Numbered from the stretch's first letter, positions 17,261-58,765 are shown. The stretch is 64,000 bases of DNA from a virus (IMGVR_UViG_3300038679_000131:34839-98838); one strand, 5' to 3'. A program made the numbers and translations. Notes: generated from the sequence alone by a model not told the origin.

Positions 17261-17264
17261 CAGT

Positions 17265-17837: not shown

Positions 17838-17845
17838 GTAATTTT

Positions 17846-18265: not shown

Positions 18266-18291
18266 GGTGAACCCTCCTTTTTTGTTAAGAA

Positions 18292-39314: not shown

Positions 39315-39833
39315 ATGGGTAGATTGAAGCGGCGAGAGGATGATAACCCTCCAGAAAATGGTAAAAACCTTCCGTCCTGCATTGAAGACAAATTAGTTAT
39401 AGACAAATATACTATTGTTAGATTGTTAGCTGAAATGGGTTTGTTTCAGCATGAGATAGCCACTTGTCTTAATATTAGTAATACTCGGTTTTCTGTCCAG
39501 CTTGGTAAAGATGCAAAACTAAGAGAAGCATTAGAATTAGGTAAACGTAAACCAGACCAGCAAGTTCAAATGTCATTGTATCAAACTGCTCTTGGTTATA
39601 ATTATCAAGAAGTTGTTGTGGAAGAGGAATATTTGATTTCTCAGAAGGATGGATGTAGGATTGAAACTCCAATAGGAAAAAAAGTCAAAACTTCTAATAA
39701 GCACCAACCTGCAAATCCCACAGCAATTCTATTCTGGTTGAAGAATCGCTTGCCGAAAGTTTGGAAGGATCGTGTTGAAGCTACTATCACATTGCGGGAT
39801 AGGGCTGAGATGGCTCATAGGTTTGGGGCATAA
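39315..39833 (+). CDS. terS: Terminase small subunit
   Basis: HTH (EIATCLNIS), ALELGK...V..SLYQTALGY, PANPTAILFWLKNRLPKVWKDR; first gene of the late arm. Confidence 0.75.
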   Translation: MGRLKRREDDNPPENGKNLPSCIEDKLVIDKYTIVRLLAEMGLFQHEIATCLNISNTRFSVQLGKDAKLREALELGKRKPDQQVQMSLYQTALGYNYQEVVVEEEYLISQKDGCRIETPIGKKVKTSNKHQPANPTAILFWLKNRLPKVWKDRVEATITLRDRAEMAHRFGA

Positions 39834-39859: not shown

Positions 39860-40750
39860 ATGGAATATGAATATGAAGAAATTGCAATATCTAATGTTGC
39901 TGTAGGATTTACGGCAGCTAATCTTACCCCACCGGCTGATCCTGATGGTTTAAAACGAAGTCTCACCTATGTTCGATGTGTTGTTGGTGGTGATTCTATC
40001 ATGGTTCTAAAGACAGGGGGAACCCCAACTAATTTAATTGGAGAGGAGTTTTCTGTTGGAACTGTTTTTTATGTAAGAAAAGACGATGCAAAGAATTTTA
40101 AAGCTATTCGTAAGACAACAGATGCCACTTTAAAATGCTTTTATGTAACAGGAGAAAGTACTCCCATTCCGTATGATTACTCTTTTAATGGTTCTCAAAT
40201 TGCCTCTACAGCTAGGGTGATTGAAATTCTTGAGGAACTTTTGGAAAGGCTCAAAATTAGTTACACTCTCTTTAGTGCAAGTCCTTCAACATCTCCAAGT
40301 CTGAGTCCTTCGTTATCTCCTTCATTGTCACCGAGTCTGAGTCCTTCTCTGTCTTCTAGCTTATCACCAAGTCTAAGTCCGAGTCTTTCCCCTAGTCTAA
40401 GCCCAAGTGTGAGTTTGTCACCAAGTTTGAGCCCGTCTCTAAGCCCAAGCTTGAGCCCATCACTTTCTCCGAGTCTTTCACCAAGCCTATCTCCAAGTTT
40501 GAGTCCATCGCTTTCACCTTCTTTAAGCCCGAGCTTGTCGCCTAGTCTGTCACCGAGTATCAGTCCAAGTGTAAGCCCATCTGAATCGGTAAGTCCGTCT
40601 CTGTCTTCAAGTATGTCACCGAGCTACAGTCCATCAGCTTCAACTTCACCTAGTTTGAGTCCTTCATTGAGTTCTTCAATGTCACCGAGCTACAGTCCAT
40701 CAGCTTCAACTTCACCTAGTCTAAGTCCAAGTGTGTCACCATCTACTTAA
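39860..40750 (+). CDS. Small beta-domain protein with a ~158-aa Ser-Pro (SPSL) mucin-like C-terminal tail
   Basis: (SPSL)n tract ending SPSVSPST; strong RBS. Confidence 0.8.
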   Translation: MEYEYEEIAISNVAVGFTAANLTPPADPDGLKRSLTYVRCVVGGDSIMVLKTGGTPTNLIGEEFSVGTVFYVRKDDAKNFKAIRKTTDATLKCFYVTGESTPIPYDYSFNGSQIASTARVIEILEELLERLKISYTLFSASPSTSPSLSPSLSPSLSPSLSPSLSSSLSPSLSPSLSPSLSPSVSLSPSLSPSLSPSLSPSLSPSLSPSLSPSLSPSLSPSLSPSLSPSLSPSISPSVSPSESVSPSLSSSMSPSYSPSASTSPSLSPSLSSSMSPSYSPSASTSPSLSPSVSPST

Positions 40751-40778
40751 TTTTTAAGTAATATAAGGGAGAAATAAA

Positions 40779-41159
40779 ATGGCAGAGATTCCAAGCATTC
40801 CAGTAATTGTAGCTCAAAACCAAACGGCTAAGATTACTTCTCATAGTTTTGTAATTGGTGCAGCAGAGACAAGTGGAACCTCTGCTATTTCTTATAATGG
40901 TATGGTAAAGAATTTACATTTAGTGGTTCCCAATTTCACCAATGTCGTCACTGTTACTGTTACTTTGGTAGATAGCAGTGGAAGAGTTTTATGGACCTCT
41001 GCGGCAAAAGCTAAAAATGCCAGTTATAATTTGAGTATTGAGGCTGAATGGTTTGACCAATTAGTTGAAAGTACCCTTATTTGGACAATTACTCTTTCGG
41101 GGGTTCCTGGTGGGTCAGGTGGTACAGTAGTTCTTGTACCAAGATATTATGGGGTTTAA
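40779..41159 (+). CDS. Small beta-sandwich protein, probably virion-associated
   Basis: Val/Thr-rich alternating strands; late-operon position. Confidence 0.55.
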   Translation: MAEIPSIPVIVAQNQTAKITSHSFVIGAAETSGTSAISYNGMVKNLHLVVPNFTNVVTVTVTLVDSSGRVLWTSAAKAKNASYNLSIEAEWFDQLVESTLIWTITLSGVPGGSGGTVVLVPRYYGV

Positions 41160-41161
41160 TT

Positions 41162-43654
41162 ATGCAACATAGATGTGCTTTAATTCCAGTTGTAGGGAAG
41201 CTCCCAGAAAAATACCTCCTCCGAGACGACTTCACCACGGCTCTCGCCGCGCCCCTCCCGGCAACCTTCCCCATGTCTCCGGGGCCTGGAATCTGGACGC
41301 CCCGGGATGTGGAGAACAAAATCGCCATCGCCTCTGGTTGGGCAGAGTTCACCCCCCAGGCGTCCCCGGTTTATGCCGAGCAGGATTTGATTTGCAAGAA
41401 TGTCCCCGTTACCAGGGAGGCTGGGGCGATCATTGTAGCCCAATGGCGCTGCACTACGGATGGAAGCCACTATCCCCTGGCCTTATTAACCTCCCAGACG
41501 CCGAGTTGGAATCACACTAACGTCAACGCCGGGTTCTGGCGGGGGGCGGCGGGGGCCTTGTATGGGATCGCCAATTCAACCTCTTACGGCAAAATTGCCG
41601 ACTTTGTTGCTGACGGGACAATTTACAATCTGATTATCGATTTGCGGGCTGCTGGGGTTTATCTCTATATGCAGGGCGGGACCTATACCTATCCCGAACT
41701 GGTTTTTTCTTCCATTGCTGGAACGGGTACGCCTCTCTATGTGGGGGCGGCAGGGTACGATGCTGCGTTCGGGGTGAATTTTATCAGAGTCCCCCAGGAG
41801 AAATTGCTGTTTGCGCCGGAGGTGTCAGACGGTTTTAGTATAGACGGTGAGTCCGATGCCCTGGCTCATGCCGAGACTTTCGGGCTGGGCGCGGGCGGCG
41901 GCGAGAAGTTCTGGCATTACCGTGACCCGTACCGGAATACCAAAGCCCTGACACTCAAGGGCCAGTTGCATTGTCATACCACCAATTCGGACGGGGTTGA
42001 TACCCCAATAGCCCTGGTCACGGCCTACAAGAATGCCGGGTATCATTTTATCGGAGTGACAGATCATTACAACGGCACGACGTATCCTAATTTCACCGTC
42101 GACCCTGGGGTGTCAGGGATCACGTTTCTACCCAGTTGCGAAGGCGGCGGAACTTCGGTTGAATTGCTGTGCTGGAATGTGTCACAGGGCTACAGTGCGG
42201 CCACTCAGGTCGTGATTGATGCGGTTCTGGCTGAAGGTGGGATGATCGGCTTGCCCCATCCTAATTATGAGACACCTATCACCACGGCTTTTACTTACCT
42301 TTGGAGCCGTGGGTTGCACCTGATCGAGGCTTATAACGGAGCTGTGTATAACGGTGTTAGCGGCCCTGCTGCTGGCGAGGGCCGGGCTCAATGGGATGCT
42401 CACCTGAGTCTGCATAGGATATTCTACGGGATATTTACTGATGATTGCCATGATATTTCCGATCCAGGCGGATTCGATAATGGCTGGGTTATCGTTTTTG
42501 CCGACACGAACACCCCGGCAGCCATAGTTGATGCCCTGAAAAAGGGCAATTTCTATGGCAGTAACGGGCCTGATTTTTCTCAGTCCTTTGACCGGGAGAC
42601 AGGGGTTATTACGGTGACCACCTCCGCTGCGGCTACCATCCGGTTTATTGGGGCGGGTGGGGCGGTGCTGCAAACCACCAATGATGTGACTACGGAGACT
42701 TATACATTGGTGGGGACCGAACTTTATGTACGGGCTGAGGTGATCCGCAATTCCGATAGCAAGTGGGCCTGTGGTCAACCGATCATGCGGGAGACCTGGA
42801 GCCTGAGCGGCGGGCAAATGCTGAATACGCCCCCGATGCCTAATGCCAATCTGATCGGCAACAGCACTTTTGATGATGGCTCATGGTGGTCTGTGGATAC
42901 CCCGACCGATTGGGCCATTTCCGGGGGGACAGCTAACAAGGCGGCTGGGGCCTCCGCCAGGCGGCTATACAAATCGTCTCTTATAACCCTGGGCCGGTTT
43001 TATCAACTGACCTGGGACATCTTGAACCGGACGGCGGGGAACTTTTTTTCTACTATCCAATATTCCAGCAAGTACCGGACGGCAGACGGTTCCTATGTTG
43101 ATTATTTGTTTTCCTTGTCAGGACAAACCTTTGCCATATATGGCGATGCGGCGTCTGCTGGGTCCATTGACAATGTTTTCCTGGAAGAAGTGCCGTTCAC
43201 GGCCTGCATCAAGGCCATTGAGTCGTCAACCCCGGATACGGAGGTGGGTATTGACTTGATGACGGTGCCCTCGGCCAGCATGGCAGGGTTTATTCTAAGC
43301 GCCGATCATCCTGATTACCCGTGCAATTTTGTCCTGGCTTTATTGGTCAGGACGAACCCCGGCGACTTTGTTTATCTAATTAAGTACGTGAACGGGGTGC
43401 CGACCCAAGTGTTCTCCACGTCAACAAGTTTTGCCGATGGCCGCCGCCTGATCGCCCGGAAATTCGGCAACAATTATTTCCTGTCGCAGCACGGAGGCTA
43501 TGTCAACACTGGCGTGGTTGCCGATGCCGGGATCATCAATAATCGTTATTTCGGTCTGTTCACCCCGGACCCATTGGTTCGGTTTGATAACTGGCTGTTG
43601 CGGCCAACGGGCACTGGGCAGGAGTATTCGTGGTTTAATCGGTTTTTGAGGTAG
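41162..43654 (+). CDS. Multidomain protein with a PHP (CehA/McbA-like) metallohydrolase domain and beta-sandwich/CBM-like domains; start reassigned to ATG 41162
   Basis: KGQLHCHT..SDG, GVTDH, PHP, EAYN, TDDCH, GNFYGSNGP; NLIGNSTFD CBM-like start; GC-rich DNA. Confidence 0.7.
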   Translation: MQHRCALIPVVGKLPEKYLLRDDFTTALAAPLPATFPMSPGPGIWTPRDVENKIAIASGWAEFTPQASPVYAEQDLICKNVPVTREAGAIIVAQWRCTTDGSHYPLALLTSQTPSWNHTNVNAGFWRGAAGALYGIANSTSYGKIADFVADGTIYNLIIDLRAAGVYLYMQGGTYTYPELVFSSIAGTGTPLYVGAAGYDAAFGVNFIRVPQEKLLFAPEVSDGFSIDGESDALAHAETFGLGAGGGEKFWHYRDPYRNTKALTLKGQLHCHTTNSDGVDTPIALVTAYKNAGYHFIGVTDHYNGTTYPNFTVDPGVSGITFLPSCEGGGTSVELLCWNVSQGYSAATQVVIDAVLAEGGMIGLPHPNYETPITTAFTYLWSRGLHLIEAYNGAVYNGVSGPAAGEGRAQWDAHLSLHRIFYGIFTDDCHDISDPGGFDNGWVIVFADTNTPAAIVDALKKGNFYGSNGPDFSQSFDRETGVITVTTSAAATIRFIGAGGAVLQTTNDVTTETYTLVGTELYVRAEVIRNSDSKWACGQPIMRETWSLSGGQMLNTPPMPNANLIGNSTFDDGSWWSVDTPTDWAISGGTANKAAGASARRLYKSSLITLGRFYQLTWDILNRTAGNFFSTIQYSSKYRTADGSYVDYLFSLSGQTFAIYGDAASAGSIDNVFLEEVPFTACIKAIESSTPDTEVGIDLMTVPSASMAGFILSADHPDYPCNFVLALLVRTNPGDFVYLIKYVNGVPTQVFSTSTSFADGRRLIARKFGNNYFLSQHGGYVNTGVVADAGIINNRYFGLFTPDPLVRFDNWLLRPTGTGQEYSWFNRFLR

Positions 43655-43793
43655 GGGGGTAGGAGTTGACGCTGTGGCGATACGGGGCTTTCAAGCGAAT
43701 AACTGCCAATCGGTTTTACCGGGGGCTTCTGATCATCCCGGGGTGCTGGTAGATATTAATCAATTATAATAAAATAAATATAGTAGGTGGTTA

Positions 43794-44588
43794 ATGATCC
43801 TTTCAGTAATTATCCCCTCATGGAAAGACCCTTATTTAATTAAAACTATTAATTCTCTTTTGACAAGTTCTGAGTTAGGGGGCAAGTTAGAAATCATAGC
43901 AGTATTGGATGGTTACTGGCCGACTTTCCAGCTTGTTGAAGAACCAAGAGTTCGTTATATTCATCTTGGCAAGAATAGAGGAATGAGAGGAGCGATTAAT
44001 GCTGGGGTTGATATAGCAAGAGGAGAATTTATCTGTCGGGCAGATGAACATTGCTTATTTGGACAGGGTTGGGATAGGATAATGACAGAAAGTTGTAAAC
44101 CAAATTGGATTATGACTTCTAGAAGATACTTTCTTGATCCGGTTAAGTGGGAAATAATGAAAGAACAAGGTTATGTTGATTATGAGAAATTAGTTATTCA
44201 AGAAGGAATTAAATTTTCTGGTCAAAGGTGGAGGAGCAGAGATAAAGAAAGAAAAGATATAATGGTTGATGGTACTATGGCTATGCAGGGTTCAGTTTGG
44301 CTTATGCCAAGACAATGGTGGAAAGATGTAATAGGTGAATTGCAGACTGAGGGATATGGTCCTCACTACCAGGATTCTCATGAGATGGTTTTCAAGACGT
44401 GGAAAGCAGGTGGAAGTTTAATGCTTAACAAAAGTACTCACTTTGCTCATAAACATAGAAGTTTTTCCAGAACACATAATGATGGAACAGTAGATAATCC
44501 AGCTAATAAAGAGGCTGGATGGAAATATTCACTTGATGTTTGGCGGGAATATTATGAATCGGAAATAAGACCTCGTTGGGGGATTTAA
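43794..44588 (+). CDS. GT-A glycosyltransferase (GT2/ppGalNAc-T-like)
   Basis: LSVIIPS, RGMRGAINAG, RADEHC, QGSVW, EMVFKTWKAGG...FAHKHR. Confidence 0.85.
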   Translation: MILSVIIPSWKDPYLIKTINSLLTSSELGGKLEIIAVLDGYWPTFQLVEEPRVRYIHLGKNRGMRGAINAGVDIARGEFICRADEHCLFGQGWDRIMTESCKPNWIMTSRRYFLDPVKWEIMKEQGYVDYEKLVIQEGIKFSGQRWRSRDKERKDIMVDGTMAMQGSVWLMPRQWWKDVIGELQTEGYGPHYQDSHEMVFKTWKAGGSLMLNKSTHFAHKHRSFSRTHNDGTVDNPANKEAGWKYSLDVWREYYESEIRPRWGI

Positions 44589-45448
44589 TGAAAATTTTAA
44601 TTACTGGTTGTGGTGGAATGTTGGGGGAAGCAGTATATAAAGAACTTAAAGAAGACCATACAGTTTTTGCTACTGACATAGATTTGAATGAAGATTGGCT
44701 TACTTTTCTTGATGTTCGGTACCCTATTTTAAAAGATTACTCAAAACCTGATATAATTATTCATCTTGCAGCCCTTACAAGAATGGAGTATTGTCAATTA
44801 AATCCAGAAGCCTCCTACGATACTAATCTCATTGGCACTAATAAAATGGTTCAAATAGCAAAGGATCATGATATTCCTTTTGTGTATATCTCATCGGCTG
44901 GGATATTTGATGGTAAAAAAGAATATTATCTTGAGAATGACAAACCAAATCCATTAAGTGTTTATGCAAAATCTAAATATGCCGGGGAGTTAATGTCATT
45001 AACACATTATAAAACTACTGTGATTAGGGCTGGTTGGATGATTGGAGGTGGACCAAAGAAAGATAAGATGTTTATAAATAAATTAATTAAGCAAATTCAG
45101 TCTGGAGCAAAAGAATTGTTTGTAGTAAAAGATAAATTTGGCACACCTACTTATACCTATGATTTGGCAAAACTGATTCGTTATCTTATTAGTAATCATA
45201 GGTACGGAATTTATCATGGAACTTGCTCTGGCGGTGGATCTAGGGTAGAAATTGCTAGAGAATTATTAAAAGATTTGTGTTTAGAAGGGAAGATTAAACT
45301 TAATGCTGTTGATTCTGACTATTTTAAAGATGAATATTTTGCTATGCGACCAAGGTCTGAAATGTTGGTAAGCACAAAAATAAATTCAAATCGCTCATGG
45401 GAAGAATGCTTGAAGGAATACATCAATAAATTTGAGTGGAAAATATGA
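44588..45448 (+). CDS. rmlD: dTDP-4-dehydrorhamnose reductase-like SDR
   Basis: ITGCGGMLG, HLAALT, YISS..IFDG, PLSVYAKSK, D.FGTPTYT.DLA, A.RP. Confidence 0.85.
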   Translation: MKILITGCGGMLGEAVYKELKEDHTVFATDIDLNEDWLTFLDVRYPILKDYSKPDIIIHLAALTRMEYCQLNPEASYDTNLIGTNKMVQIAKDHDIPFVYISSAGIFDGKKEYYLENDKPNPLSVYAKSKYAGELMSLTHYKTTVIRAGWMIGGGPKKDKMFINKLIKQIQSGAKELFVVKDKFGTPTYTYDLAKLIRYLISNHRYGIYHGTCSGGGSRVEIARELLKDLCLEGKIKLNAVDSDYFKDEYFAMRPRSEMLVSTKINSNRSWEECLKEYINKFEWKI

Positions 45449-46182
45449 AGAACTTAGTGGTTTTTATTACTCCACAAAAGAAATTCTTTGGTGAATATGT
45501 TCAATTAGTTAAGGTGCTGATTGATAACAGTCTTGATTTGGGGTGGAAACCAGAAGATATTTTATTAGTGACAAATTTTTCTTTTCGATATAATGGTGTT
45601 AAATCTACTAGAGTCCACAATGAGAATTACTGTGCTTGTCGTCCCCGATCTATTAAAACAAGTGTGATTCCTCATCTTATTGATAGAGGAATTGTAAAGA
45701 AGGGGGAGATTTATTGGAATCATGATCTTGATGCTTTTCAGATGAACTCTTTCAAAGAAGAAGATTTAGGTTTAGAATCAGTAGATATGGGACTTACTGA
45801 TTATGGCTGGAAGAAGAGGTGGTGTTTTGGAAGTTATTTTTTCAAAGAAAGTGCGAAAGACATATTTGAATTAACCTGTCCTATTATTCATTCTGATATT
45901 GAAGATGAAGAAGCTATACAAAAGTTACAAAATGACAATATTAATTCCTTCAATGAACGTCATAAGAGATTGAATATTACTTACAATTTCGGTATGAGAA
46001 AGGTAGAAGATAATTATCAAAGAGCAGAAAAACCAATAAAAGTTGTGCATTTTCATCCTACTTATAAATTAGTAAGAACTTGGGACGTTTTTGTCCTTGG
46101 TAAAAATGGGTTAAATATGCCTTTAGTAAATGAAAGGTTAATAGGAGTGTTCAAACAAAATGGAATCAACGGAATTAGGTAA
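45445..46182 (+). CDS. GT-A glycosyltransferase (GT8/GT77-like)
   Basis: HDLD DxD motif, LNITYN, VVHFHP. Confidence 0.6.
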   Translation: MKNLVVFITPQKKFFGEYVQLVKVLIDNSLDLGWKPEDILLVTNFSFRYNGVKSTRVHNENYCACRPRSIKTSVIPHLIDRGIVKKGEIYWNHDLDAFQMNSFKEEDLGLESVDMGLTDYGWKKRWCFGSYFFKESAKDIFELTCPIIHSDIEDEEAIQKLQNDNINSFNERHKRLNITYNFGMRKVEDNYQRAEKPIKVVHFHPTYKLVRTWDVFVLGKNGLNMPLVNERLIGVFKQNGINGIR

Positions 46183-46771
46183 AGAACTTGAATTTAAGAC
46201 TCCTCTTTGTGAGATTGCTTATAAGTACGGGACGGATAAATGCCCCCAAATTGGGCATAATTACACTCCTTTTTATTATGATCTTTTGAAAGATAAGAGA
46301 GAGTCTTTTAAGAAAGTAGTGGAATTGGGAATAGGAACTCGTGGAACTATGGGCAAAAGGGCTGTTCCTCATTATGTGACAGGAGCAAGTCTTTATATGT
46401 GGAGAGATTTTTTTCCGAATGCCCAAATATTTGGTGCAGACTTTATGGGAAATGCTTTGTTTCAATCTGATAGGATAAAGACTTTTTTCTGTGATGAAAG
46501 ACAGGTTACAGATTTGAAGTCTTTAGTAAAAAATATTGGAAATGATGTTGATTTATTCATTGATGATGCTAGCCATGCTGGATGCCATCAGGTTTTTGCC
46601 TGTGTGCATATACTCCCTTTGTTAAAGAAGGATGTAATTTACATTATTGAAGATGTTGGAAGACCTGAGAAAGTTGCTCGGGAATTAAAGGAAGTTTATG
46701 GTTATGATTGTCAGATAATTAAGCATTTTTCAAAGGTAAAGTATGATAATCTTGTTATTGTAAGGAAATAA
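46160..46771 (+). CDS. Class I SAM methyltransferase (sugar O-methyltransferase-like)
   Basis: YGTDK..HNY, VVELGIG, GASL.MW..FFP.A.I.G.D, FIDDASH, YIIEDV. Confidence 0.85.
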   Translation: MESTELGKELEFKTPLCEIAYKYGTDKCPQIGHNYTPFYYDLLKDKRESFKKVVELGIGTRGTMGKRAVPHYVTGASLYMWRDFFPNAQIFGADFMGNALFQSDRIKTFFCDERQVTDLKSLVKNIGNDVDLFIDDASHAGCHQVFACVHILPLLKKDVIYIIEDVGRPEKVARELKEVYGYDCQIIKHFSKVKYDNLVIVRK

Positions 46772-46772
46772 T

Positions 46773-47438
46773 ATGGACGCTACCATAATTTATTGTTCCT
46801 CAAACATGGAGATGCCAGCTTTTGAGGACAAAATAAAGGAAAAACTATTGGAAAATTGTGGAGATTTGCCGATTATTAGTGTAACTCAAAAACCAATAAA
46901 TTTGGGTATGAATATTTGTGTTGGAAACGATATTGGCGTGAGTGGGTTCAACTATTTTAGGCAGTTCCTCCTGGGCTGTGAAGCAGCTAAGACCAGATTT
47001 ATTATTTCTGCTGAAGCAGATTGTCTTTATCCACCTGATTATTTTACTTTCAGACCAGAAAAAGATGATGTTTGCTATAGGAATAGTAATTTATATGTCA
47101 TGCCTGATAAAAGAGCATATTTTTTCTACAAAAAAGAAGGTGCTACCCATTCTCAAGTAGTAGGACGAGAGTTTTACATTCATACTTTGAAGAAATTATT
47201 TGTAGGTGCTCCTATGTGGAGTAAGGAAGAAAAGAATTTTCCTAAAGAGCGTTGGCGTAAAGCAGATGTAGTTGATAAAATTGAATATTGGAGAACCGAA
47301 AATCCTGTATTCCAGATAAAAACCCACATGGGGATGAGGTATTATACCAACAGTGATCGTACTCCAATTCTTGAATTACCTTATTGGGGAAGTGGAGAAA
47401 AAATTTACAAAGAGTATGTTAAAGGAATAGCAAGATGA
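46773..47438 (+). CDS. GT-A-like glycosyltransferase (paralog group B)
   Basis: IIY, LPIISV.QKPI.LG.N, AEADCLY. Confidence 0.6.
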   Translation: MDATIIYCSSNMEMPAFEDKIKEKLLENCGDLPIISVTQKPINLGMNICVGNDIGVSGFNYFRQFLLGCEAAKTRFIISAEADCLYPPDYFTFRPEKDDVCYRNSNLYVMPDKRAYFFYKKEGATHSQVVGREFYIHTLKKLFVGAPMWSKEEKNFPKERWRKADVVDKIEYWRTENPVFQIKTHMGMRYYTNSDRTPILELPYWGSGEKIYKEYVKGIAR

Positions 47439-48304
47439 AACTATCTGTGGTTATTCCGGGCCAAAAAGAACCTTTAATGCAGAAAACTATTGATACTTTA
47501 TTAGAAAAATCTGAGTTAGGTTCAGGCATTGAAATTTTTGCTGTAATAGATGGTCCATGGATGGAACCACCGGTAGGAGATTCTAGGGTAAAGATTATAC
47601 AGTTTCCAGAAAGTAGAGGAATGAGAGCAGGAATCAATGCTGGAATTGCCCAAACTACTGGTGAGTTTATAATGAAATGTGATGCTCATTGCTCATTTTC
47701 TCAAGGTTTTGATAAAAATATGGTAGAAAATTGTGATGATAATTGGTTATTGATTCCAAGGCGTTATTCTTTAGACGATACAACTTGGGAAATAATTAAG
47801 AGAAGACCAACTAGAGATTATCACTATTTAAGTTTTCCAAATGGTGGAGGAATGTTTCCTCAGAATTGGGGGTTAACAAAAGAGGAAAATGAGATAGATG
47901 ATACTATGACATTTCAGGGCAGTTGTTGGGTGGCAAATAGAAAATTTTTTGTGAAATATATTGGTTTTTTGGATGATAATCCTTCTACCTATGGCACCTT
48001 TGCAGCAGAACAGTTGGAAATCGGATTGAAGTATTGGTTAGGGGGAGGAAAAGTAAAAGTAAATAAAAAGACTTGGTATGCTCATCTTTTTAAGATGCCA
48101 AGACATTATGATTCTGGTGAATATTTTAAAAAGAACAGTGAACAAAATAAAAAGTCTTTTGGGTGGATTTGGGCTACAGAACATTGGATGAATAACAAAG
48201 AGCCAAATATGATTTATCCTTTTGAATGGTTGATTGAGAAGTTTTGGCCTGTTCCTACTTGGCCTGAAGATAAAAAACAATGGAGGAATTATGAAATTAA
48301 TTGA
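47435..48304 (+). CDS. GT-A glycosyltransferase (GT2/ppGalNAc-T-like)
   Basis: LSVVIP, RGMRAGINAG, KCDAHC, QGSCW, EQLEIGLKYWLGGG...YAHLFK. Confidence 0.85.
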   Translation: MKLSVVIPGQKEPLMQKTIDTLLEKSELGSGIEIFAVIDGPWMEPPVGDSRVKIIQFPESRGMRAGINAGIAQTTGEFIMKCDAHCSFSQGFDKNMVENCDDNWLLIPRRYSLDDTTWEIIKRRPTRDYHYLSFPNGGGMFPQNWGLTKEENEIDDTMTFQGSCWVANRKFFVKYIGFLDDNPSTYGTFAAEQLEIGLKYWLGGGKVKVNKKTWYAHLFKMPRHYDSGEYFKKNSEQNKKSFGWIWATEHWMNNKEPNMIYPFEWLIEKFWPVPTWPEDKKQWRNYEIN

Positions 48305-48920
48305 TGCAATAAATAATTTAGAAGGTGAAAGTCCAATTAGGATTCCTAATACTTTTAGATGTGATTTTCCTGATTTTTTAGTAGAAATGGGGTATAAAGT
48401 AGGGGCCGAGATTGGAGTTTATAAGGCTCAATTTACAGATTTATTTTGCAAAGCTGGTTTAAAGATGTATGCTATTGACCCTTGGAAAGCTTATGCAGGG
48501 GCCGGACGTACACAGAAAGCTCAAGATAGACAAGATTTTCTTTATAGCCATGCTTGTAGAGTTCTTGCTCCGTATTCTAATTGTACTATCATTAGAAAGT
48601 CGTCAATGGATGCTCTGAGCGATTTTAAAGACGGCAGCCTAGACTTTGTATATATAGATGCAGATCATACGTTTCGATACGTTGCTGAAGACATTGTGGA
48701 ATGGGAAAAGAAGGTAAGAAAAGGAGGAATAGTATCTGGTCATGACTATTTTACTACTATTCCAGAAGCAAGAAATGTAATTTGCCATGTTGAGGTTATT
48801 GTGGATGCTTATGTGAGAGCTTTTAATATAGAAAAATTTTATATTTTTGGAAAAGCAATTCCCGGAGAAGAAAAGACTAAAGACGACAAATATCCCTCGT
48901 GGATGTGGATTAAAAAGTGA
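48291..48920 (+). CDS. Class I SAM methyltransferase (Methyltransf_24-like); start reassigned to ATG 48291
   Basis: GAEIGVY, AIDPW, DFVYIDADH, GGIVSGHDY. Confidence 0.85.
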   Translation: MKLIDAINNLEGESPIRIPNTFRCDFPDFLVEMGYKVGAEIGVYKAQFTDLFCKAGLKMYAIDPWKAYAGAGRTQKAQDRQDFLYSHACRVLAPYSNCTIIRKSSMDALSDFKDGSLDFVYIDADHTFRYVAEDIVEWEKKVRKGGIVSGHDYFTTIPEARNVICHVEVIVDAYVRAFNIEKFYIFGKAIPGEEKTKDDKYPSWMWIKK

Positions 48921-49642
48921 AAAGTATCATATTTTATACGGATAATCATCTTGAGAGGAGCAGGCATCAGGACGTACCAGTTCTTGTTCGTAAATTTCTT
49001 ATTGATAGTGGGTTACCTATTTTTAGTTGCTCATTAGCACCAATTGATTTTGGACAGAACACAGTTTTAGAAGGACATAAGAGGGGGTATCCTACAATGC
49101 TCCTTCAAATTATAACTGCTTTAGAAGCCTCTACTACAAAGTATGTATTTTTCGCAGAGCATGATTGTCTATATCATAAAAGCCATTTTGATTTCACTCC
49201 TCCCAAAGATGATACTTATTATTATAATGTCAACAATTATAGATGGATTTTTCCTAAAGATTGTTTAGTCTCTCATGATGGTCAAAAGTCATTGTCTGGT
49301 TTATGTGTTAATAGGGAGACAGCACTAAAACATTTTAAGTTTAGGTTAGATTACCTTGTAAAAAGAGAATTATTTAAAGAAAGTGATAGAAGTAAAGAAC
49401 CAAGGTGGGCTAGAAGATTTGGTTATGAACCAGGGACTAAGAAAAGAAGAAAAGGTGGAATAACTGATGAGGATTTTGAGTTATGGAGGTCTGAGTTACC
49501 TAATATTGATATAAGGCATTATAGAAATTTTTCATCTCCTCCAATTCTGTGTATAGATTACAGAGATATTCCTGAAAATTGGAAAGTTAAAAGAATTGAT
49601 GAGATTGAAGGATGGAATTTAAAGGAGATGTTTAAACTGTGA
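48917..49642 (+). CDS. GT-A-like glycosyltransferase (paralog group B)
   Basis: IIFYTDN, AEHDCLYH, SLSGLC, GYEPG, PNIDIRH. Confidence 0.6.
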   Translation: MKSIIFYTDNHLERSRHQDVPVLVRKFLIDSGLPIFSCSLAPIDFGQNTVLEGHKRGYPTMLLQIITALEASTTKYVFFAEHDCLYHKSHFDFTPPKDDTYYYNVNNYRWIFPKDCLVSHDGQKSLSGLCVNRETALKHFKFRLDYLVKRELFKESDRSKEPRWARRFGYEPGTKKRRKGGITDEDFELWRSELPNIDIRHYRNFSSPPILCIDYRDIPENWKVKRIDEIEGWNLKEMFKL

Positions 49643-50397
49643 AAGGGTTAGTATATTATACCGATAATCGCTTGCCAGAACCTATATTTTCTGCTGTCCA
49701 ACGGGAAGTATTAAAAAGTAATTTACCTATTATAAGTGTGTCTTTAAAGCCAATTGATTTTGGAATTAATATTGTTCTTGATTTGAAACCAAGTGTAATA
49801 TCAATGTTTAAACAAATATTAAAAGGATTAGAATCAAGCAGTTCTGATATGATTTTTCTAGTGGAGCATGACGTTTTATATCATTCTAGCCACTTTAGTT
49901 TTAAACCACCAAGACGAGATACTTATTATTATAATACAAATGTTTGGAGATGGAAATATCCGCATGACTATCTTATAACTTACGATCATCTTATTTCTTT
50001 GTCTGGCTTATGTGCTGATAGGGATTTACTGATAAATCATTACACAAAGAGACTTGAAATTATAGAGAAAAATGGTTGGGAAGATGGGAGAGACCCAAAT
50101 TGGGCTAGAAAAATAGGTTATGAACCTGGTAAAAAACGTAGACGTGGTGGTTTTATGGATGAACCTATAGATGAATGGAAATCTGCTTTTCCAAATATTG
50201 ATATAAGACATAAGAGGACAATTACTCCACCAAAAGTTACTTTAGACAGTTTTAGGCATTTGCCCACAGGATGGAAAGAATCAAGATTTGACCAGATTAA
50301 AGGTTGGGAATGTTTTGATTTTAGTTTGAAGGGTGGCATTAATGGTCTTAAATGTAAGAAAATGGGTCAAATAACTTTTTGGGATGCTACAATATGA
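49639..50397 (+). CDS. GT-A-like glycosyltransferase (tandem paralog of 48917..49642)
   Basis: VYYTDN, VEHDVLYH, SLSGLC, GYEPG, PNIDIRH. Confidence 0.6.
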   Translation: MKGLVYYTDNRLPEPIFSAVQREVLKSNLPIISVSLKPIDFGINIVLDLKPSVISMFKQILKGLESSSSDMIFLVEHDVLYHSSHFSFKPPRRDTYYYNTNVWRWKYPHDYLITYDHLISLSGLCADRDLLINHYTKRLEIIEKNGWEDGRDPNWARKIGYEPGKKRRRGGFMDEPIDEWKSAFPNIDIRHKRTITPPKVTLDSFRHLPTGWKESRFDQIKGWECFDFSLKGGINGLKCKKMGQITFWDATI

Positions 50398-51371
50398 GTA
50401 AAAATTATTCCCTTAGCATTTTGATTCCCAGTCGGAATGAGATGTTTCTTGCTAGAACTATTGAAGATATCCTAGCAAATATAGAAGCTGATACTGAAAT
50501 CATAGCCACCTTGGATGGGGATTGGGCTAAACCACCTATTCCACAACATGATAGAGTAAATGTAATTTATGTTCCAGAAGCAATAGGACAAAGAGCAGCT
50601 ACAAACATAGCTTGTAATCTTGCTAAAGGTAAGTATGTAATGAAAGTTGATGCCCATTGCTCGTTTGATAAGGGTTTTGACAGAATCATGTTAGAGGGTT
50701 TTAAAGAAGTTGGAGATAATATCACGATGGTACCAATCATGCGGAATCTGTGGGCCTTCGATTGGAAGTGCTATCATTGTGGGAAAAGAACATATCAAGG
50801 ACCAACCCCAACAAAGTGTGTTCAATGTGGAAAAACTGATAAAATACGAAGAAAAATGCTATGGATTGGCAAGCACAACCCACAATCGTGGTCATATTGT
50901 TTTGATAGTGAACCTCACTTTCAGTATTTTGAAGAATACAAACATAGGCCAGGGATTAGGGATGCAGCAAAAGAAACAGGTTTTTCTGAGACAATGAGTT
51001 TACAGGGCAGTTGCTTCATGGCTACTAAAGAAAAATACCAGGAACTTAATCTTTGTGATGAAAGACTTGGCAGTTGGGGAAATCAAGGAATAGAAGTAGC
51101 TTGTAGGACTTGGCTTAGTGGTGGAAGAGTATTAGTCAATCATAGGACTTGGTATGCCCATATGTTTAGAACCCAAGGAGGAGATTTTTCTTTTCCTTAT
51201 CCTCAATCCGGTAAAGGAGTACAGAAGACTAAGCAAAGAACTTGGAATACTTTTTTAAATGGTTGGGAGAAACAGATTTATCCAATTTCGTGGCTGGTTG
51301 AGAAATTTTGGCCTGTGAAGGGATGGTCACAGGAAGCATTGAATAAACTTAAAGAGAAAGAGAAAAGATGA
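50394..51371 (+). CDS. GT-A glycosyltransferase, ppGalNAc-T-like, with a Zn-ribbon insertion; start reassigned to ATG 50394
   Basis: LSILIPSRNE, KVDAHC, CYHC..CVQC, WGNQGIEVACRTWLSGG...YAHMFR. Confidence 0.85.
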   Translation: MSKNYSLSILIPSRNEMFLARTIEDILANIEADTEIIATLDGDWAKPPIPQHDRVNVIYVPEAIGQRAATNIACNLAKGKYVMKVDAHCSFDKGFDRIMLEGFKEVGDNITMVPIMRNLWAFDWKCYHCGKRTYQGPTPTKCVQCGKTDKIRRKMLWIGKHNPQSWSYCFDSEPHFQYFEEYKHRPGIRDAAKETGFSETMSLQGSCFMATKEKYQELNLCDERLGSWGNQGIEVACRTWLSGGRVLVNHRTWYAHMFRTQGGDFSFPYPQSGKGVQKTKQRTWNTFLNGWEKQIYPISWLVEKFWPVKGWSQEALNKLKEKEKR

Positions 51372-51781
51372 ATGAATTGGAATTTAAAATTCTTCTGAAT
51401 GAAAAACTATGTGATTTGGCAGAGGCTATTTTGCATTATTATAATCCTTGTAAGTTTAATGGAAATTCTTGTCTTTTGTCGGATAAGATAGGGAAAGAAA
51501 CTAATAGTTGTTGTTTTAGAAGTAAATTTGATCGCAGTAATGAGGACAAGGTTTGTCTATTTTTGAAAGGGAGGAGTTGTGGATTTAGAAATATAGGCTG
51601 TAAATTATTTCTTTGTTATTTTGCCGCACAGGAAAATTTAGAGTGTGTTGAAGATTTAAAATCTCTTGAATTGATTGCAAAGCATTATGGATTGATGAGG
51701 CGCCCATTCTTAGGAGATCGCTATGCTGGAATGACGGAAGAACTTATTAGGATTGAAGACAAGGAATTGAACAATGGGTAA
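51368..51781 (+). CDS. Cys-rich protein (YkgJ/CxxCxxCC-like metal cluster)
   Basis: PC..C..CC...CLFL...C.....CKLFLC. Confidence 0.5.
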   Translation: MNELEFKILLNEKLCDLAEAILHYYNPCKFNGNSCLLSDKIGKETNSCCFRSKFDRSNEDKVCLFLKGRSCGFRNIGCKLFLCYFAAQENLECVEDLKSLELIAKHYGLMRRPFLGDRYAGMTEELIRIEDKELNNG

Positions 51782-52196
51782 ATCATTTTCTCCAAGTAAA
51801 AGTCCTTCCCTATCACCAAGTCTAAGCCCAAGTAAATCACCAAGTCTCAGTCCAAGTCTTTCCCCTTCACTATCACCAAGTATAAGTCCATCACTTTCAC
51901 CGAGTGTTTCACCAAGTCTTAGTCCATCTATCAGTCCAAGCAAAAGTCCTAGTCTGTCACCATCATTAAGTGCTTCATTACCTTCAAGTTATAGTCCAAG
52001 CCTATCACCATCAAAATCAGCGAGTTATAGTCCATCAATATCTTTATCAATATCATTGTCTCCTAGTAAATCACCGAGTAAATCTAGGAGTATAAGCCCA
52101 AGTGTTTCTCCTTCTAGAGGTCGTCGTCATAACGAACCGGGTTGGATACGTCTAGGAAGATGGATTGGAGGACCAGCTCCGGGAAGAAGAAGATGA
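51774..52196 (+). CDS. Almost pure Ser-Pro repeat protein with an Arg/Trp-rich C-terminal peptide
   Basis: (SPS[L/K/I/V])n followed by RGRRHNEPGWIRLGRWIGGPAPGRRR. Confidence 0.7.
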   Translation: MGKSFSPSKSPSLSPSLSPSKSPSLSPSLSPSLSPSISPSLSPSVSPSLSPSISPSKSPSLSPSLSASLPSSYSPSLSPSKSASYSPSISLSISLSPSKSPSKSRSISPSVSPSRGRRHNEPGWIRLGRWIGGPAPGRRR

Positions 52197-52390
52197 CTTT
52201 ACTCAAAATAAAATATGATTTTGGCTGGATTAAAAAACAAGGGTTTTCTACTTTATCAGATTGTAAAGAATTTGTTTCCCAAATGAATAATTTTTGCTAT
52301 CATTGGGATATAAATAGTCAGCAATGCAATTTAGTTGAAAAGTTTTGTCTTTGGAAAGGGAAAAGATATGGCACGATTAAAGAAACATAA
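52193..52390 (+). CDS. Small hypothetical protein
   Basis: ATGA coupling with the upstream SPS protein. Confidence 0.4.
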   Translation: MTLLKIKYDFGWIKKQGFSTLSDCKEFVSQMNNFCYHWDINSQQCNLVEKFCLWKGKRYGTIKET

Positions 52391-53972
52391 GCATACTGAA
52401 AAAGAAATAAAAACAGGTAGAAATTTTGTTCCTTCAATGGATTTGGGAAATATTGATTTTGAAAGCCTTATTCCAGATAAGATTACTGAGCAAGCTTTGA
52501 GAGACCAACTCACTTTCTTTAAGAATTACAAAGTTAATCCCTTAGACTTTTTCTTTCATGAACTTGGAATTAGTACAGAAAAATGGCCTAATGATGCTCC
52601 ACGACTTGGTCATGACAGAAGTAATCCTCCCCTTTGGAGTAAACAAAGGGAGATCGTTCAAGCATTAGTAAAATATAGAAAAGTTGCAGTAAAGTCGGGT
52701 CACGCTTCAGGAAAAAGCTATTTGCTAGCGAGAATTGTTTTATATTTAGCCTATGCTTGGCACGCTTTGGGAATCACTACTGCTCCTACTTTTAGGCAAG
52801 TAAAGCGAGTTCTTTGGGGTGAAATTCATGATGCCTATAATAATGCTCCAAAGAAATTAGGTGGAAAACTTACTCAAACTTCTCTTGAGTTGGGAGATAA
52901 ATGGTTTGTTGAAGGTTTCAGTACGAAAGATCCTGCTGCTAACATAGCGGGTTTCCATGAAGAAAACATCTTTGTAGCAATAGATGAAGCAGGTGGTGTT
53001 GAAAATCTTGTTTTTGATGTTATTGAAGGTATTCTTACTTCTCCTGTTTCTTATGTTGTCCTTATTGGTAACCCTCTTGATGAGAAAGGAAAGTTTGCTG
53101 AGATTTTTAGGGGAATGGAAGATAGAGATGGTTTTAATGAGAACTCAGGGTTTTATTGCATTACAATTAATTGTTATGATACTCCCAATGTAAAGCATGG
53201 GATAAATCTTTATCCAAAATTATGTGATAAAGATTGGCCTGATAAAATGGCTGAAAAATGGGGGAGAGATTCAAATTTATTTAGGGTAAAAGTTTTAGGA
53301 CAGTTTCCAATAGATGGCGGTGATGTTCTAATTCCTTTCAAGTATATACAAAGGGCAGTTGATAATTATGAGGATTATGATGAATCAAAAACTGATCCTG
53401 TTATTACTCTTGGAGCGGACATCGCCAGATTCGGCGCAGATTCTACCGTGATAATGGCTAGAAGAAGATCGGGGCGTTGTGATATTCTTGAAGTTACTGA
53501 TAAAGAAAGGGAAACTGAGACAGTCGGAAGAATTATTTTCCATTTTGAGAATTTTAAATCTATGCGACAAGAGCCTGCCTGTATAAATGTTGATGATACA
53601 GGGTTAGGAGGTGGTGTTGTTGATATGCTTTGGGAGAGGGGATATCCTGTGAATAGTATTGTCTCCCAAGAAGGGGCAGATGAAATTCCAGGAGATGATA
53701 GGGTAAGATTTCTTAATAAGAGAGCGCAATACTATTGGAAACTGAGAACTGCTTTTCATGAGGACAAAGTAGCTATTAATGATTGGGAATTAGGACATGA
53801 ATTGTCCAAGATTACTACTGATAAATTCTTGAGTGAAGGGAAGATGAAGATTTCAGATAAGGATGATTTGAAAAAGAAAATAGGGCGTTCACCTGACAGG
53901 GCAGATTGTCTTATGCTGTGCTTTGCTGAAGATGAACTAATCTCTGGTCAGGATTTGATAGCTTGGGCATAA
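52368..53972 (+). CDS. terL: Terminase large subunit; start reassigned to ATG 52368
   Basis: KQ.EI, SGHASGKS, TAPT..Q, AIDEA, IGNP, LGADIARFGADST, VDDTGLGGG, SPDRAD. Confidence 0.93.
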   Translation: MARLKKHKHTEKEIKTGRNFVPSMDLGNIDFESLIPDKITEQALRDQLTFFKNYKVNPLDFFFHELGISTEKWPNDAPRLGHDRSNPPLWSKQREIVQALVKYRKVAVKSGHASGKSYLLARIVLYLAYAWHALGITTAPTFRQVKRVLWGEIHDAYNNAPKKLGGKLTQTSLELGDKWFVEGFSTKDPAANIAGFHEENIFVAIDEAGGVENLVFDVIEGILTSPVSYVVLIGNPLDEKGKFAEIFRGMEDRDGFNENSGFYCITINCYDTPNVKHGINLYPKLCDKDWPDKMAEKWGRDSNLFRVKVLGQFPIDGGDVLIPFKYIQRAVDNYEDYDESKTDPVITLGADIARFGADSTVIMARRRSGRCDILEVTDKERETETVGRIIFHFENFKSMRQEPACINVDDTGLGGGVVDMLWERGYPVNSIVSQEGADEIPGDDRVRFLNKRAQYYWKLRTAFHEDKVAINDWELGHELSKITTDKFLSEGKMKISDKDDLKKKIGRSPDRADCLMLCFAEDELISGQDLIAWA

Positions 53973-55943: not shown

Positions 55944-57061
55944 GTTATATTTTGAAAGGCCCAGATGATCAGCCAATTCTCAGAAATGACAAAGAGGTTT
56001 ATGTTCAAGATTTTACAGGAGAAATTAAAGGAGTAAATCTTGAAAAACGAACTCTGTCCATTGTTGGTACAGATGAAACGAGAGATCGAGACGGTGATAT
56101 TATCAGGGTCAATGGCTGGATACTTGAGAATTATTTGAAGAATCCAGTTTTTCTTTGGGCTCATAATTATTCTTCTGTTCCTCTTGGTGCAACTTCTTCC
56201 CTTATCCGCCGTCGTAATCCAAGTCGTTTAGAATTTAAAGACATTCGCTTTCCCACTGAAGGTCTCAATCCTTTTGCTGATATGATTTTGCAACTTTATC
56301 AACAACAAATTATTAATGCCTCTAGTGTGGGATTCTTGCCCTACAAATGGCAAGACCTTGAAAAATCTGAAGATGCTGGCGATGAGCCTCCAATGTGGAG
56401 GTATGGTAGAGAATATGTAAAACAAGAATTGCTTGAACTTTCTGGTTGCCCTGTCCCATCTAATCCTTCTGCTCTCCAAAATGCGATCAAAAATTTTGCA
56501 GGTTCTGATATTCTTACTCAGAACCTTCTTAATTGTTTTGATAGAGGGATTGACAATTTGGAACATAAGGATGATATTCTTGAGGAACTTAGACTCAAAA
56601 ATGAGATTGATATAATTGATGAAGATCGTCCACACCAAGTTCAAGTACCTGAAAAAATTGAATCTGAACCTGAAGTAAAAACTGATTCTGAAGAAAAAAC
56701 TGAAACTGAAATTGAAATTGAACCTGAGGAAAAAGAAATAGAAACAGAAAATGAAACAAAAGCTGAACCTGAAAATGAGAAAGAAGAAATTCTTGACGTA
56801 GAGAGTAAAATTCCTGAAGGAGAAGGGGAGACCAAACAGGAATTTACTCTTAGTCAAGCTGATAAGGAATGGCTTGTTCAAACTATTAAAGAGATTGTTC
56901 AAGCCAACAAAGAAGAAATTCCGGCTAAGGCTCCCCAAGAGGCCCCAATTGAAGAAACCCCATCTGTTAATCCTGAAATGATAAAGTTTAATGAGGAAAT
57001 GGGGAGACTTAGAAAAGTCGCTAAAGAAATTGAGGAGGTAGTTAAAAATGCCACACATTAA
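55940..57061 (+). CDS. HK97-type prohead protease with acidic (scaffold-like) C-terminus
   Basis: DRDGDII...NPVFLWAHN...SSVGF...ELLELS.CPVPSNP.AL. Confidence 0.9.
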   Translation: MSYILKGPDDQPILRNDKEVYVQDFTGEIKGVNLEKRTLSIVGTDETRDRDGDIIRVNGWILENYLKNPVFLWAHNYSSVPLGATSSLIRRRNPSRLEFKDIRFPTEGLNPFADMILQLYQQQIINASSVGFLPYKWQDLEKSEDAGDEPPMWRYGREYVKQELLELSGCPVPSNPSALQNAIKNFAGSDILTQNLLNCFDRGIDNLEHKDDILEELRLKNEIDIIDEDRPHQVQVPEKIESEPEVKTDSEEKTETEIEIEPEEKEIETENETKAEPENEKEEILDVESKIPEGEGETKQEFTLSQADKEWLVQTIKEIVQANKEEIPAKAPQEAPIEETPSVNPEMIKFNEEMGRLRKVAKEIEEVVKNATH

Positions 57062-58348: not shown

Positions 58349-58765
58349 ATGGCGCTTTCTGCAAATCGTTTCTCCAGAAAGATTGTTGGGGACGTAATTG
58401 AGTTGCCAGTTTATACTGGTGTACACATTTACGCTGGTGGTTTTGTTTGTGTAAATACTGGTCATGGTTATGCCATTCCTGGTGCTGATGCTTCTGGCAA
58501 TCTCTGTATGGGTATTGCTGAAAGTGAAGCTGATAACACTAATGGCGCTAGCGGTGACATTGTTGTTCGGGTTCGTCGGACTGGTGTTTTTCTGATGGCC
58601 GCCACTAGTATTGCTATTACTAGTGTTGGTGTAGTTATGTATGTGGTAGACGACCAGACCTTTGATGAAACTCAGGCAGGTAACTCTGTTAAAGCTGGTG
58701 TTTTGGTGAAATATGTCTCGGCCACTTCTGGTTGGATTGACATTGGTCGTGTCACCACTCCGTAA
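58349..58765 (+). CDS. Capsid decoration/cement protein (DUF2190-like)
   Basis: PVYTG..IYAGG.V....GYA.P...GIA......G..G...V.V.RTGVF...VYVVDD.T. Confidence 0.7.
   Translation: MALSANRFSRKIVGDVIELPVYTGVHIYAGGFVCVNTGHGYAIPGADASGNLCMGIAESEADNTNGASGDIVVRVRRTGVFLMAATSIAITSVGVVMYVVDDQTFDETQAGNSVKAGVLVKYVSATSGWIDIGRVTTP

Follow-up and report, generated by a model that had tools for sequence, protein, structure and literature searches.

A glycosyltransferase cassette that accompanies Ser-Pro repeat tails in a tailed phage: a candidate module for virion O-glycosylation

INTRODUCTION

Why does a tailed phage carry about 12 kb of glycosyltransferase (GT) and related genes between the genes for its small and large terminase subunits (TerS and TerL), and why is this insert bounded by proteins made up largely of a Ser-Pro-Ser-x repeat, (SPSx)n? 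The locus lies in a 64,000-nucleotide stretch of a virus record (IMGVR_UViG_3300038679_000131:34839-98838), here called the window, which forms the final part of a 98,838-bp record with 28-bp terminal repeats; positions are those of the window unless the genome is named. To our knowledge, phage virion glycosylation has so far been known mainly from a few mycobacteriophages. An earlier note on this DNA had proposed that the cassette glycosylates Ser-Pro acceptors on virion proteins. Judging from sequence, we consider it probable that the cassette is a cytoplasmic O-glycosylation module for SPSx tails on virion proteins. Across more than 100 related loci, tracts and enzymes appear and disappear jointly, which points to a so far undescribed manner of coating virus particles with sugar.

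RESULTS

SPSx tracts are confined to the cassette and the tail module

Six-frame scans of the window and of the remaining genome located seven SPSx tracts, carried by six proteins. Every tract falls within the cassette or the tail module; the rest of the 98.8 kb has none. The tract-bearing proteins are the tail tube, three proteins encoded between the tape measure and the lysis genes, and two proteins of the cassette. Three tracts lie in the window, at 40259-40747 (163 residues), 51771-52124 (118 residues) and 62603-62716 (the tube tail), on the following proteins:

39860-40750, plus strand: SPS296, with a beta-sandwich (residues 1-97), a helix (residues 111-133) and an (SPSx)n tail of about 160 residues (40259-40747) ending STSPSLSPSVSPST
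51774-52196, plus strand: SPS140, a stand-alone (SPSx)n protein with a basic C-terminus
62096-62719, plus strand: major tail (tube) protein of 207 residues (phrog_807, 7.5e-8), with a 33-residue SPSx C-terminal tail (62618-62716)

Outside the window, four tracts are found on tail-module proteins of 352, 292 and 226 residues (genome 3145-4203, 6216-7094 and 9147-9827). Most tracts are C-terminal tails; one, in the 352-residue protein (T352), is an inter-domain linker. The variable residue is mostly V, L or I, and five of the tracts are terminated by SPSVSPS followed by T or S.

The 23 SPSL units of SPS296 are written in 23 distinct DNA versions, whose nucleotide identity averages 57.5%, and the last 14 residues, which SPS296 and the tube have in common, share only 29 of 42 bases. 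TRF returned weak partial arrays for the tracts. Since the peptide repeat is constant while the DNA diverges, selection acts on the peptide and not on the DNA; both the tracts and this constraint at the codon level are direct observations. The codon diversification of the repeats described in the earlier note is therefore confirmed, as is its picture of a cassette bookended by SPS proteins, with the same tail on the tube.

SPS296 is preceded by a strong ribosome-binding site, and its AlphaFold2 (AF2) model has a pLDDT of 88. Its N-terminal domain has 51 homologues, and its look-alikes in BFVD comprise small phage proteins together with the N-terminus of one tail fibre protein; against the PDB, the domain gave background only (Foldseek E values of 5e-3 or above; VIA Z of 7.9 or below, to cupin/jelly-roll folds including the PM2 spike). 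Small stand-alone SPS open reading frames (ORFs) are also found in loci L015, L033, L035 and L055. Among the SPS proteins, the tube, whose gene precedes the chaperone and tape-measure genes, is the only one with a family match that names a virion protein (phrog_807).

The non-repeat domain of the 226-residue protein has homologues of 26-30% identity at L069:2067-2663, L076:1336-1941 and L099:2084-2680. These lack the SPS tail, and the L069 copy lies directly upstream of a GT cassette.

Tails and cassette are absent together from a close relative

G029 (locus L118) is a 54-kb contig whose TerL, capsid and portal are 84%, 85% and 77% identical to those of the phage studied here, and which is syntenic with it from the early genes through the tail tip. 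In these 54 kb, profile and tblastn searches found no cassette gene, and there is no tract. The tube orthologue of G029 stops at ...YFRNYEDAT, whereas the protein encoded here continues ...YKIYESAPSGSPSKSPS....; the orthologue of the 292-residue protein (T292) stops at the tail junction, and that of T352 consists of the 93-residue N-terminal domain alone. G029 is a natural knock-out, in which the cassette is missing and the orthologous virion proteins are without their tails; this joint gain and loss is directly seen in the genomes.

In L117, which has the most closely related TerL (88% identity), SPSx ORFs occupy more than 4 kb immediately upstream of the TerL gene, where the contig ends. In nine more distant relatives (L119-L127; about 48% TerL identity), the fetched stretches contain neither cassette nor tract, and the TerS-TerL gap varies from 0.3 to 5.7 kb, which makes this interval an insertion hotspot in this group of phages. 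Relatives of the tube were not found by a single-sequence scan.

In G029, the TerS-TerL gap (reverse strand, 13377-18350) holds a 159-residue ORF and three large proteins (515, 532 and 390 residues), and the tube (reverse strand, 29581-30770) is 391 residues long, with an extra internal domain of about 230 residues compared with the 207-residue tube here. The gap proteins and the tube domain may represent an alternative, protein-based decoration.

Tracts and enzymes co-occur in viral loci

Scanning viral contigs with an alignment of one of the two GT families of the cassette (the X family, see below) yielded 62 loci. All 62 encode relatives of the other, GT27-like family, 59 encode a member of the family of the methyltransferase MT228, and SPSx tracts occur in 54; almost all of these tracts are of the four-residue type, with V, L or I as the commonest variable residues, and some are longer than 1000 residues. 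The PHROGs names for the non-repeat domains of SPS-bearing ORFs in other phages are all structural (virion structural, minor tail, tail fibre). A TerL of the Terminase_6N family is present in six of 12 near-complete cassette-bearing viral records. The portal family of the phage studied here (PF04860, 1.1e-57) was not found in 23 cassette-bearing viral records, which therefore belong to other phage lineages; the viral records as a whole represent several lineages.

Conversely, a query with the tract as the protein reference matched at least 595 stretches, and four loci were among the matches listed. Both true SPSx loci among these carry cassette genes; the other two correspond to a TPSx/TPTx tract and to an unrelated low-complexity frame. 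Thus, the genomic co-occurrence test suggested in the earlier note came out in favour of a link: SPSx tracts and the GT set occur together in 54 of the 62 viral loci and are jointly absent from G029.

A threonine version of the repeat (TPSV/TPSN/TPTI...) occurs on a viral contig (L114:9941-10342), and no cassette gene lies within 10 kb of it. It may be that different sets of enzymes act on related acceptor repeats.

Three enzymes resemble polypeptide GalNAc-transferases

Three of the seven GTs form a first paralog group:

43794-44588, plus strand: GT2a, GT27-like GT-A enzyme lacking a lectin domain (PF00535, 3e-13)
47435-48304, plus strand: GT2b, GT27-like GT-A enzyme (PF00535, 7e-12)
50379-51371, plus strand: GT2c, GT27-like GT-A enzyme; the most conserved cassette gene, with up to 75% identity elsewhere

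The three proteins (264-330 residues) match PF00535 at 4e-11 to 3e-13 and are 26-38% identical to one another. Their best matches to polypeptide GalNAc-transferases (ppGalNAc-T) among PDB sequences are 1xhb for GT2c (4.7e-7), 6s22 for GT2b (2.6e-7) and 5nqa for GT2a (7.6e-5); for GT2a, a PglI-type glucosyltransferase (9jma, 1.5e-5) ranks first, ahead of ppGalNAc-T. A family profile was built from 30 members, taken from this phage and the fetched loci. Its top 13 PDB matches are all ppGalNAc-T, from 6.6e-15 (ppGalNAc-T1) to 8e-12, and GalT1 of the Fap1 pathway (5hea) is a weaker match (1.4e-9). The profile spans both the half with the DxH motif and the half with the Gal/GalNAc-T motif and the third metal-binding histidine, the latter half matching at 1.4e-6. 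D91, H93 and H261 are invariant in the 30 members, D91 and H93 aligning to the DAH of ppGalNAc-T1, and the segment WGNQGIE...YAHMFR of GT2c aligns with WGGENLE...VGHVFR of 1xhb. On this sequence resemblance, GT2a, GT2b and GT2c are candidates for enzymes that work like GT27 and are not members of GT27.

A second trio belongs to an unnamed GT-A family

46773-47438, plus strand: X221, unnamed GT-A family; paralog of X241 and X252, with a 70% identical homologue in a Patescibacteria cluster
48917-49642, plus strand: X241, unnamed GT-A family; invariant E81-(H)-D83
49639-50397, plus strand: X252, unnamed GT-A family; 45% identical to X241

The X proteins are 27-45% identical to one another and have no match in Pfam, PHROGs, NCBIfam or PDB sequences. 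The family comprises 950 homologues at E values of 1e-3 or below, almost all unnamed and lacking a Pfam assignment. The AF2 model of X241 (pLDDT 93.3) matches GT-A enzymes in Foldseek with a probability of 1.0, E values of about 2e-4 and TM scores of 0.35-0.47; B4GALNT1, GT6, beta4GalT7, Fringe and A64R of the chlorovirus PBCV-1 are among these matches. On the strength of the predicted fold, X221, X241 and X252 are GT-A fold glycosyltransferases with no assignable CAZy family.

Remaining genes of the cassette

The interval between TerS and TerL comprises fifteen genes, tightly packed and in one orientation; the functions given here are read at the level of family or fold, which is where the gene identities are directly supported. 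Besides the SPS proteins and the two trios, we find:

40779-41159, plus strand: 126-residue protein of unknown function (sub-threshold Pfam match only)
41162-43654, plus strand: PHP/CehA-McbA-like metallohydrolase protein of about 830 residues (PF02811, weak, 3e-4; NF038032, CehA/McbA, 9e-13)
44576-45448, plus strand: RmlD-family NAD(P)-dependent 4-keto-6-deoxy-sugar reductase (PF04321, 1.8e-50, over 282 of 290 residues)
45436-46182, plus strand: p248, probable retaining-type GT-A enzyme, GT8/GT77/GT34-like, with an invariant H-D-x-D
46160-46771, plus strand: MT203, S-adenosylmethionine (SAM) methyltransferase-like (phrog_21658, 1.5e-8), with homologues in 38 ORFs of cassette loci
48234-48920, plus strand: MT228, class I SAM methyltransferase (Methyltransf_24; PF13578, 9e-15), true start probably near 48291
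51368-51781, plus strand: Cys-rich protein of 137 residues, with no family match and of unknown function

The look-alikes of p248 in the ESM Atlas belong to PF03407, PF01501 and PF05637 (Nucleotid_trans, GT8 and GT34; TM scores of 0.65-0.72), and neither the single sequence nor a profile matches any PDB sequence; its assignment as a GT8/GT77/GT34-like glycosyltransferase is a lead. The RmlD homologue of a syntenic Patescibacteria cluster is 62% identical. RmlA, RmlB and RmlC are not encoded in the cassette. In a Woesebacteria cluster, the RmlD homologue stands beside Polysacc_synt_2, UDP-GlcNAc 2-epimerase and another short-chain dehydrogenase/reductase, a context of the 6-deoxy-N-acetylhexosamine (6-deoxy-HexNAc) type. 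The seven GTs are all without a PHROGs family. Transmembrane segments are absent from all cassette proteins, and Pfam scans of the cassette revealed no polyprenyl-phosphate transferase, flippase or polymerase. The absence of transmembrane segments fits cytoplasmic action on virion proteins and argues against the assembly of a lipid-linked polysaccharide.

Re-analysis bore out the ORFs and coordinates of the earlier note, although the starts listed for the PHP-like, RmlD, MT228, GT2c and p248 genes probably lie a few codons too early. It likewise agrees with the note on the two paralog trios of GT-A enzymes, on the RmlD-like sugar reductase and on the two methyltransferases, of which MT228 is clear from PF13578 and MT203 is recognized through phrog_21658. 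A GT8/77-like seventh GT fits the H-D-x-D motif and the fold look-alikes, at the level of a lead, and of the "PHP/CBM-like" protein the PHP part stands, weakly. A rhamnose-containing glycan, which the note had thought possible, is not borne out: the suggestion goes back to the single RmlD-family gene, which could equally serve a 6-deoxy-HexNAc route.

The 126-residue, PHP-like and Cys-rich proteins have no relatives in 109 other cassette loci and are for this reason not counted as core. The PHP-like gene has a G+C content of about 0.50, compared with 0.34 in the flanking cassette genes, and looks like a separate, recent acquisition from a source of higher G+C content.

Syntenic clusters in Patescibacteria

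A scan that took one genome for each species detected the X family at 47 loci. About half of these are recorded as Patescibacteria (Woesebacteria, Daviesbacteria, Microgenomates, Yanofskybacteria, Saccharibacteria, Paceibacterota, Collierbacteria and Levybacteria); most of the others are recorded as "uncultured Gammaproteobacteria", one of which (L085) is seen to be a chromosome of less than 1 Mb. Two of the 47 loci lie on complete chromosomes, one of them with plainly cellular flanks. The clusters are syntenic with the phage cassette, with protein identities of 47-73%; in L069, for example, the identities to the phage proteins are 70% for GT2a, 73% for GT2c, 70% for X221, 62% for RmlD and 59% for p248. 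After these clusters come SPSx ORFs, the longest of about 2,600 residues.

Queries with the TerL of this phage and with PF03237 detected no terminase in five Patescibacteria genomes, which leaves other prophage types possible. Some loci from metagenome-assembled genomes share the N-terminal domains of their SPS proteins with viral loci, so that phage or prophage DNA, taken up in the binning, may account for part of the "genome" loci. We read the system as one common to Patescibacteria and their phages, and the host of the phage studied here is probably a member of the Patescibacteria (candidate phyla radiation, CPR).

Several of the giant SPSx proteins of Patescibacteria begin with Gly-rich N-terminal domains. 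Several of those of L070, L075, L085 and L107 end in a conserved motif of about 45 residues (...W N..GRP....G..GFN..T..LE...G..W..LPM...). We also considered the giant proteins as classical secreted surface proteins; this is unsupported, their N-termini having no obvious signal peptide.

DISCUSSION

A proposed cytoplasmic O-glycosylation module and its predicted course

How might the cassette and the tails be connected? We infer glycosylation as the link from the gene content and its distribution, and the sugars, the sites, the order of the enzymes and the biological role are likewise proposals. On late expression, soluble cytoplasmic enzymes would act on (SPSx)n tracts fused to the C-termini (in one case forming an inter-domain linker) of the tube, of three proteins of the tail-tip module and of two cassette proteins. 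The GT27-like trio would add the first sugar to Pro-flanked serine hydroxyls, as polypeptide GalNAc-transferases do on mucins, and the X trio together with the GT8/77-like p248 would extend the glycan. The RmlD-family reductase could make a 6-deoxy sugar nucleotide from a keto intermediate made by the host, and the two SAM methyltransferases would O-methylate the sugars. The predicted outcome is a brush of glycans that covers the tip of the tail and runs along its length; shielding, adhesion or host-surface mimicry as its roles are speculation.

The interpretation given in the earlier note is partly supported by these data. Its core, glycosylation of Ser-Pro acceptors on virion proteins by the cassette, has strong support on the genomic side (tracts and enzymes together in 54 of 62 viral loci, their joint absence in G029, the likeness to GT27). 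The idea of "dedicated mucin-like virion proteins" is not supported, the two cassette SPS proteins being putative components of the virion.

Several points weigh against a virion O-glycosylation module. The argument is drawn from sequence throughout. The major capsid protein (57048-58298) has no SPSx tract, unlike in the mycobacteriophage precedent. The viral loci were collected through the X family, so that the sample is not independent of the cassette, and eight of the 62 have no tract, most of these being short or cut. The GT2 trio lacks two features of eukaryotic GT27 enzymes, the C-terminal ricin-type lectin domain (PF00535 being the only Pfam match) and the type II membrane anchor (there is no hydrophobic segment, the maximum KD19 being 0.7-0.9). 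Moreover, the resemblance to GT27 amounts to 25-30% identity at best, and neither donor nor acceptor can be read from it. The assignment of the host to Patescibacteria is indirect. Finally, since cassettes occur in complete Patescibacteria chromosomes with cellular flanks, the enzymes may have cell proteins as their primary substrates and could, during infection, act on targets of the host.

Alternative explanations

This last point leads to an alternative that we regard as unlikely, although it is the strongest of those considered: that the cassette consists of host-derived auxiliary genes which remodel SPSx glycoproteins or envelope glycans of the host, for instance in superinfection exclusion or episymbiont adhesion, while the virion tails serve otherwise, such as by binding structures of the host surface. 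Syntenic cassettes (47-73% identity) beside giant SPSx ORFs in Patescibacteria, complete chromosomes included, speak for it, and the literature on Patescibacteria phages interprets rmlD-type genes as host-surface auxiliary genes (PMC12911398). It leaves unexplained, however, why tails and cassette are lost together in G029 and why the cassette, with SPS proteins on either side, lies in the late operon for packaging and structure. The two explanations are not exclusive, and both may hold.

Less likely still is that the SPSx tracts serve, without being modified, as flexible spacers or entropic bristles and that the cassette makes an unrelated free or lipid-linked polysaccharide. Ser/Pro-rich linkers are indeed common in secreted proteins and in phage fibre proteins, and the tract of T352 is an inter-domain linker; the tracts are mostly terminal tails, however, with a strict register and a strict SPSVSPST ending. 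Polysaccharide assembly is at odds with a cassette that has no membrane protein and none of the transferase, flippase and polymerase genes sought, and whose closest enzyme relatives modify proteins. Nor does a spacer account for the tight co-occurrence and co-loss of tracts and GT set.

Phage GTs frequently glucosylate DNA, and a last reading, of negligible probability, is that the cassette GTs modify bases of the phage DNA. It fits poorly and we reject it: the solved-structure matches of the two families compared (GT2a/b/c and X241) include no DNA glycosyltransferase, the cassette has sugar-nucleotide and methylation enzymes typical of glycan building, and it tracks SPSx proteins, also in cellular genomes.

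Comparison with known systems

A search of the searchable literature found no description of an SPSx/GT cassette system. The closest precedent comes from the mycobacteriophages Che8, Corndog and Myrna, in which phage GTs have been proposed or shown to glycosylate extensions at the C-termini of virion proteins present in high copy number, among them capsid and tube (Freeman et al., 2023, as reported in PMC12619734 and PMC12363180). As far as those reports describe it, that system is alike in combining phage GTs with a C-terminal extension of the tube, here the 33-residue SPSx tail that the G029 orthologue lacks. It differs, on the same accounts, in having an acceptor extension on the capsid, which has none here; by comparison, the acceptor here keeps to a strict four-residue unit, (SPSx)n, over as many as 160 residues (more than 1000 in relatives), the putative initiators are GT27-like, the cassette is far larger (seven GTs, a reductase and two methyltransferases) and the host belongs to another phylum.

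Likeness to the eukaryotic GT27 ppGalNAc-T extends to the GT-A core with DxH, the Gal/GalNAc-T motif region, the third metal-binding histidine and Ser-rich, Pro-flanked repeats as acceptors. The identity of the GT2 trio to them is about 25-30% over the aligned parts, and the phage enzymes (264-330 residues) differ in being soluble and presumably cytoplasmic, with no lectin domain, anchor or secretory pathway. The serine-rich repeat proteins (SRRPs) Fap1, GspB and SraP and the staphylococcal SD-repeat proteins (SdgA/SdgB; PMC3794999) offer a parallel in their long, codon-diversified repeats of Ser-containing di- or tetrapeptides and in cytoplasmic glycosylation by several dedicated GTs that adjoin the substrate gene. 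The phage system differs from these in having Pro in the repeat unit and virion proteins as putative substrates; Pfam and NCBIfam scans of the cassette showed no GtfA/GtfB pair of GT-B enzymes and no SecA2/SecY2, and no search aimed at them was made.

Chlorovirus PBCV-1 has a virus-encoded, cytoplasmic multi-GT machinery that places methylated glycans with 6-deoxy sugars on a structural protein. Its glycans are N-linked to the capsid protein of a eukaryotic virus, which has no repeat acceptor, and the match of its A64R to the fold of X241 is generic to GT-A (TM 0.42). By analogy, the phage system would resemble mucin-type and serine-rich-repeat glycosylation in its logic, and would differ from that of the mycobacteriophages in enzymes, acceptor, scale and host.

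A wider picture is conceivable, and we put it forward tentatively, as something that may well turn out otherwise. The cassette could be a prokaryotic and viral counterpart of mucin-type glycosylation, in which a lectin-less relative of GT27 reads a strict (SPSx)n sequon, together with a GT-A family as yet undescribed that counts more than 900 metagenomic proteins. Patescibacteria and several lineages of their phages would share it, and the phages would use it to cover their tails, as well as giant fibre proteins as long as thousands of residues, with a brush of methylated glycans, maybe copying the surface glycoproteins of the host.

If the proposal is correct, this is a distinct and much larger virion-glycosylation system that pairs a simple, portable (SPSx)n tag with a defined set of enzymes and is widespread among environmental phages as well as in Patescibacteria, which are poorly understood. 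The way in which these phages and their ultra-small hosts build their surfaces would then become accessible to testing. Work on bacterial expression would gain an orthogonal tag for O-glycosylation in the cytoplasm, and there would be prokaryotic relatives in which to study how ppGalNAc-T recognize Pro-flanked serines. The proposal would also give a likely function to the more than 900 unnamed proteins of the X family.

Genome setting and neighbouring genes

The phage is a tailed phage of 98.8 kb, and the cassette sits in its late operon. The boundaries of the insert are set by two genes:

39315-39833, plus strand: small terminase subunit, TerS (phrog_309, 1.5e-24), upstream boundary
52335-53972, plus strand: large terminase subunit, TerL (phrog_2, 3e-35), downstream boundary

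After TerL follow the genes for the portal, protease/scaffold, capsid (phrog_10, 3.9e-41), connectors, tail tube, chaperones and tape measure; the genes for tail tip and lysis are found at the beginning of the record. With tube and tape measure in view, no sheath gene turned up, and no search aimed at sheath genes was made.

Directly after the capsid gene lie a 138-residue protein (58349-58765) and a 342-residue protein (58790-59818), the former paralogous to the N-terminus of the latter. Both are kept in G029 and have no SPS tract; they are possibly head decoration proteins. Away from the cassette, tandem DNA repeats occur in the window at 8535-8700 and 31105-31338 (ACCCAG, 27.7 copies; a 15-nucleotide unit, 15.6 copies, alternatively with a 45-nucleotide period). 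At genome 10126-10578, a 150-residue ORF contains the motif ESHISIHTFPD, which by eye resembles pyruvoyl-dependent S-adenosylmethionine decarboxylase proenzymes, and it is followed at genome 11310-11789 by an ORF that, again by eye, is PGRP/amidase-like.

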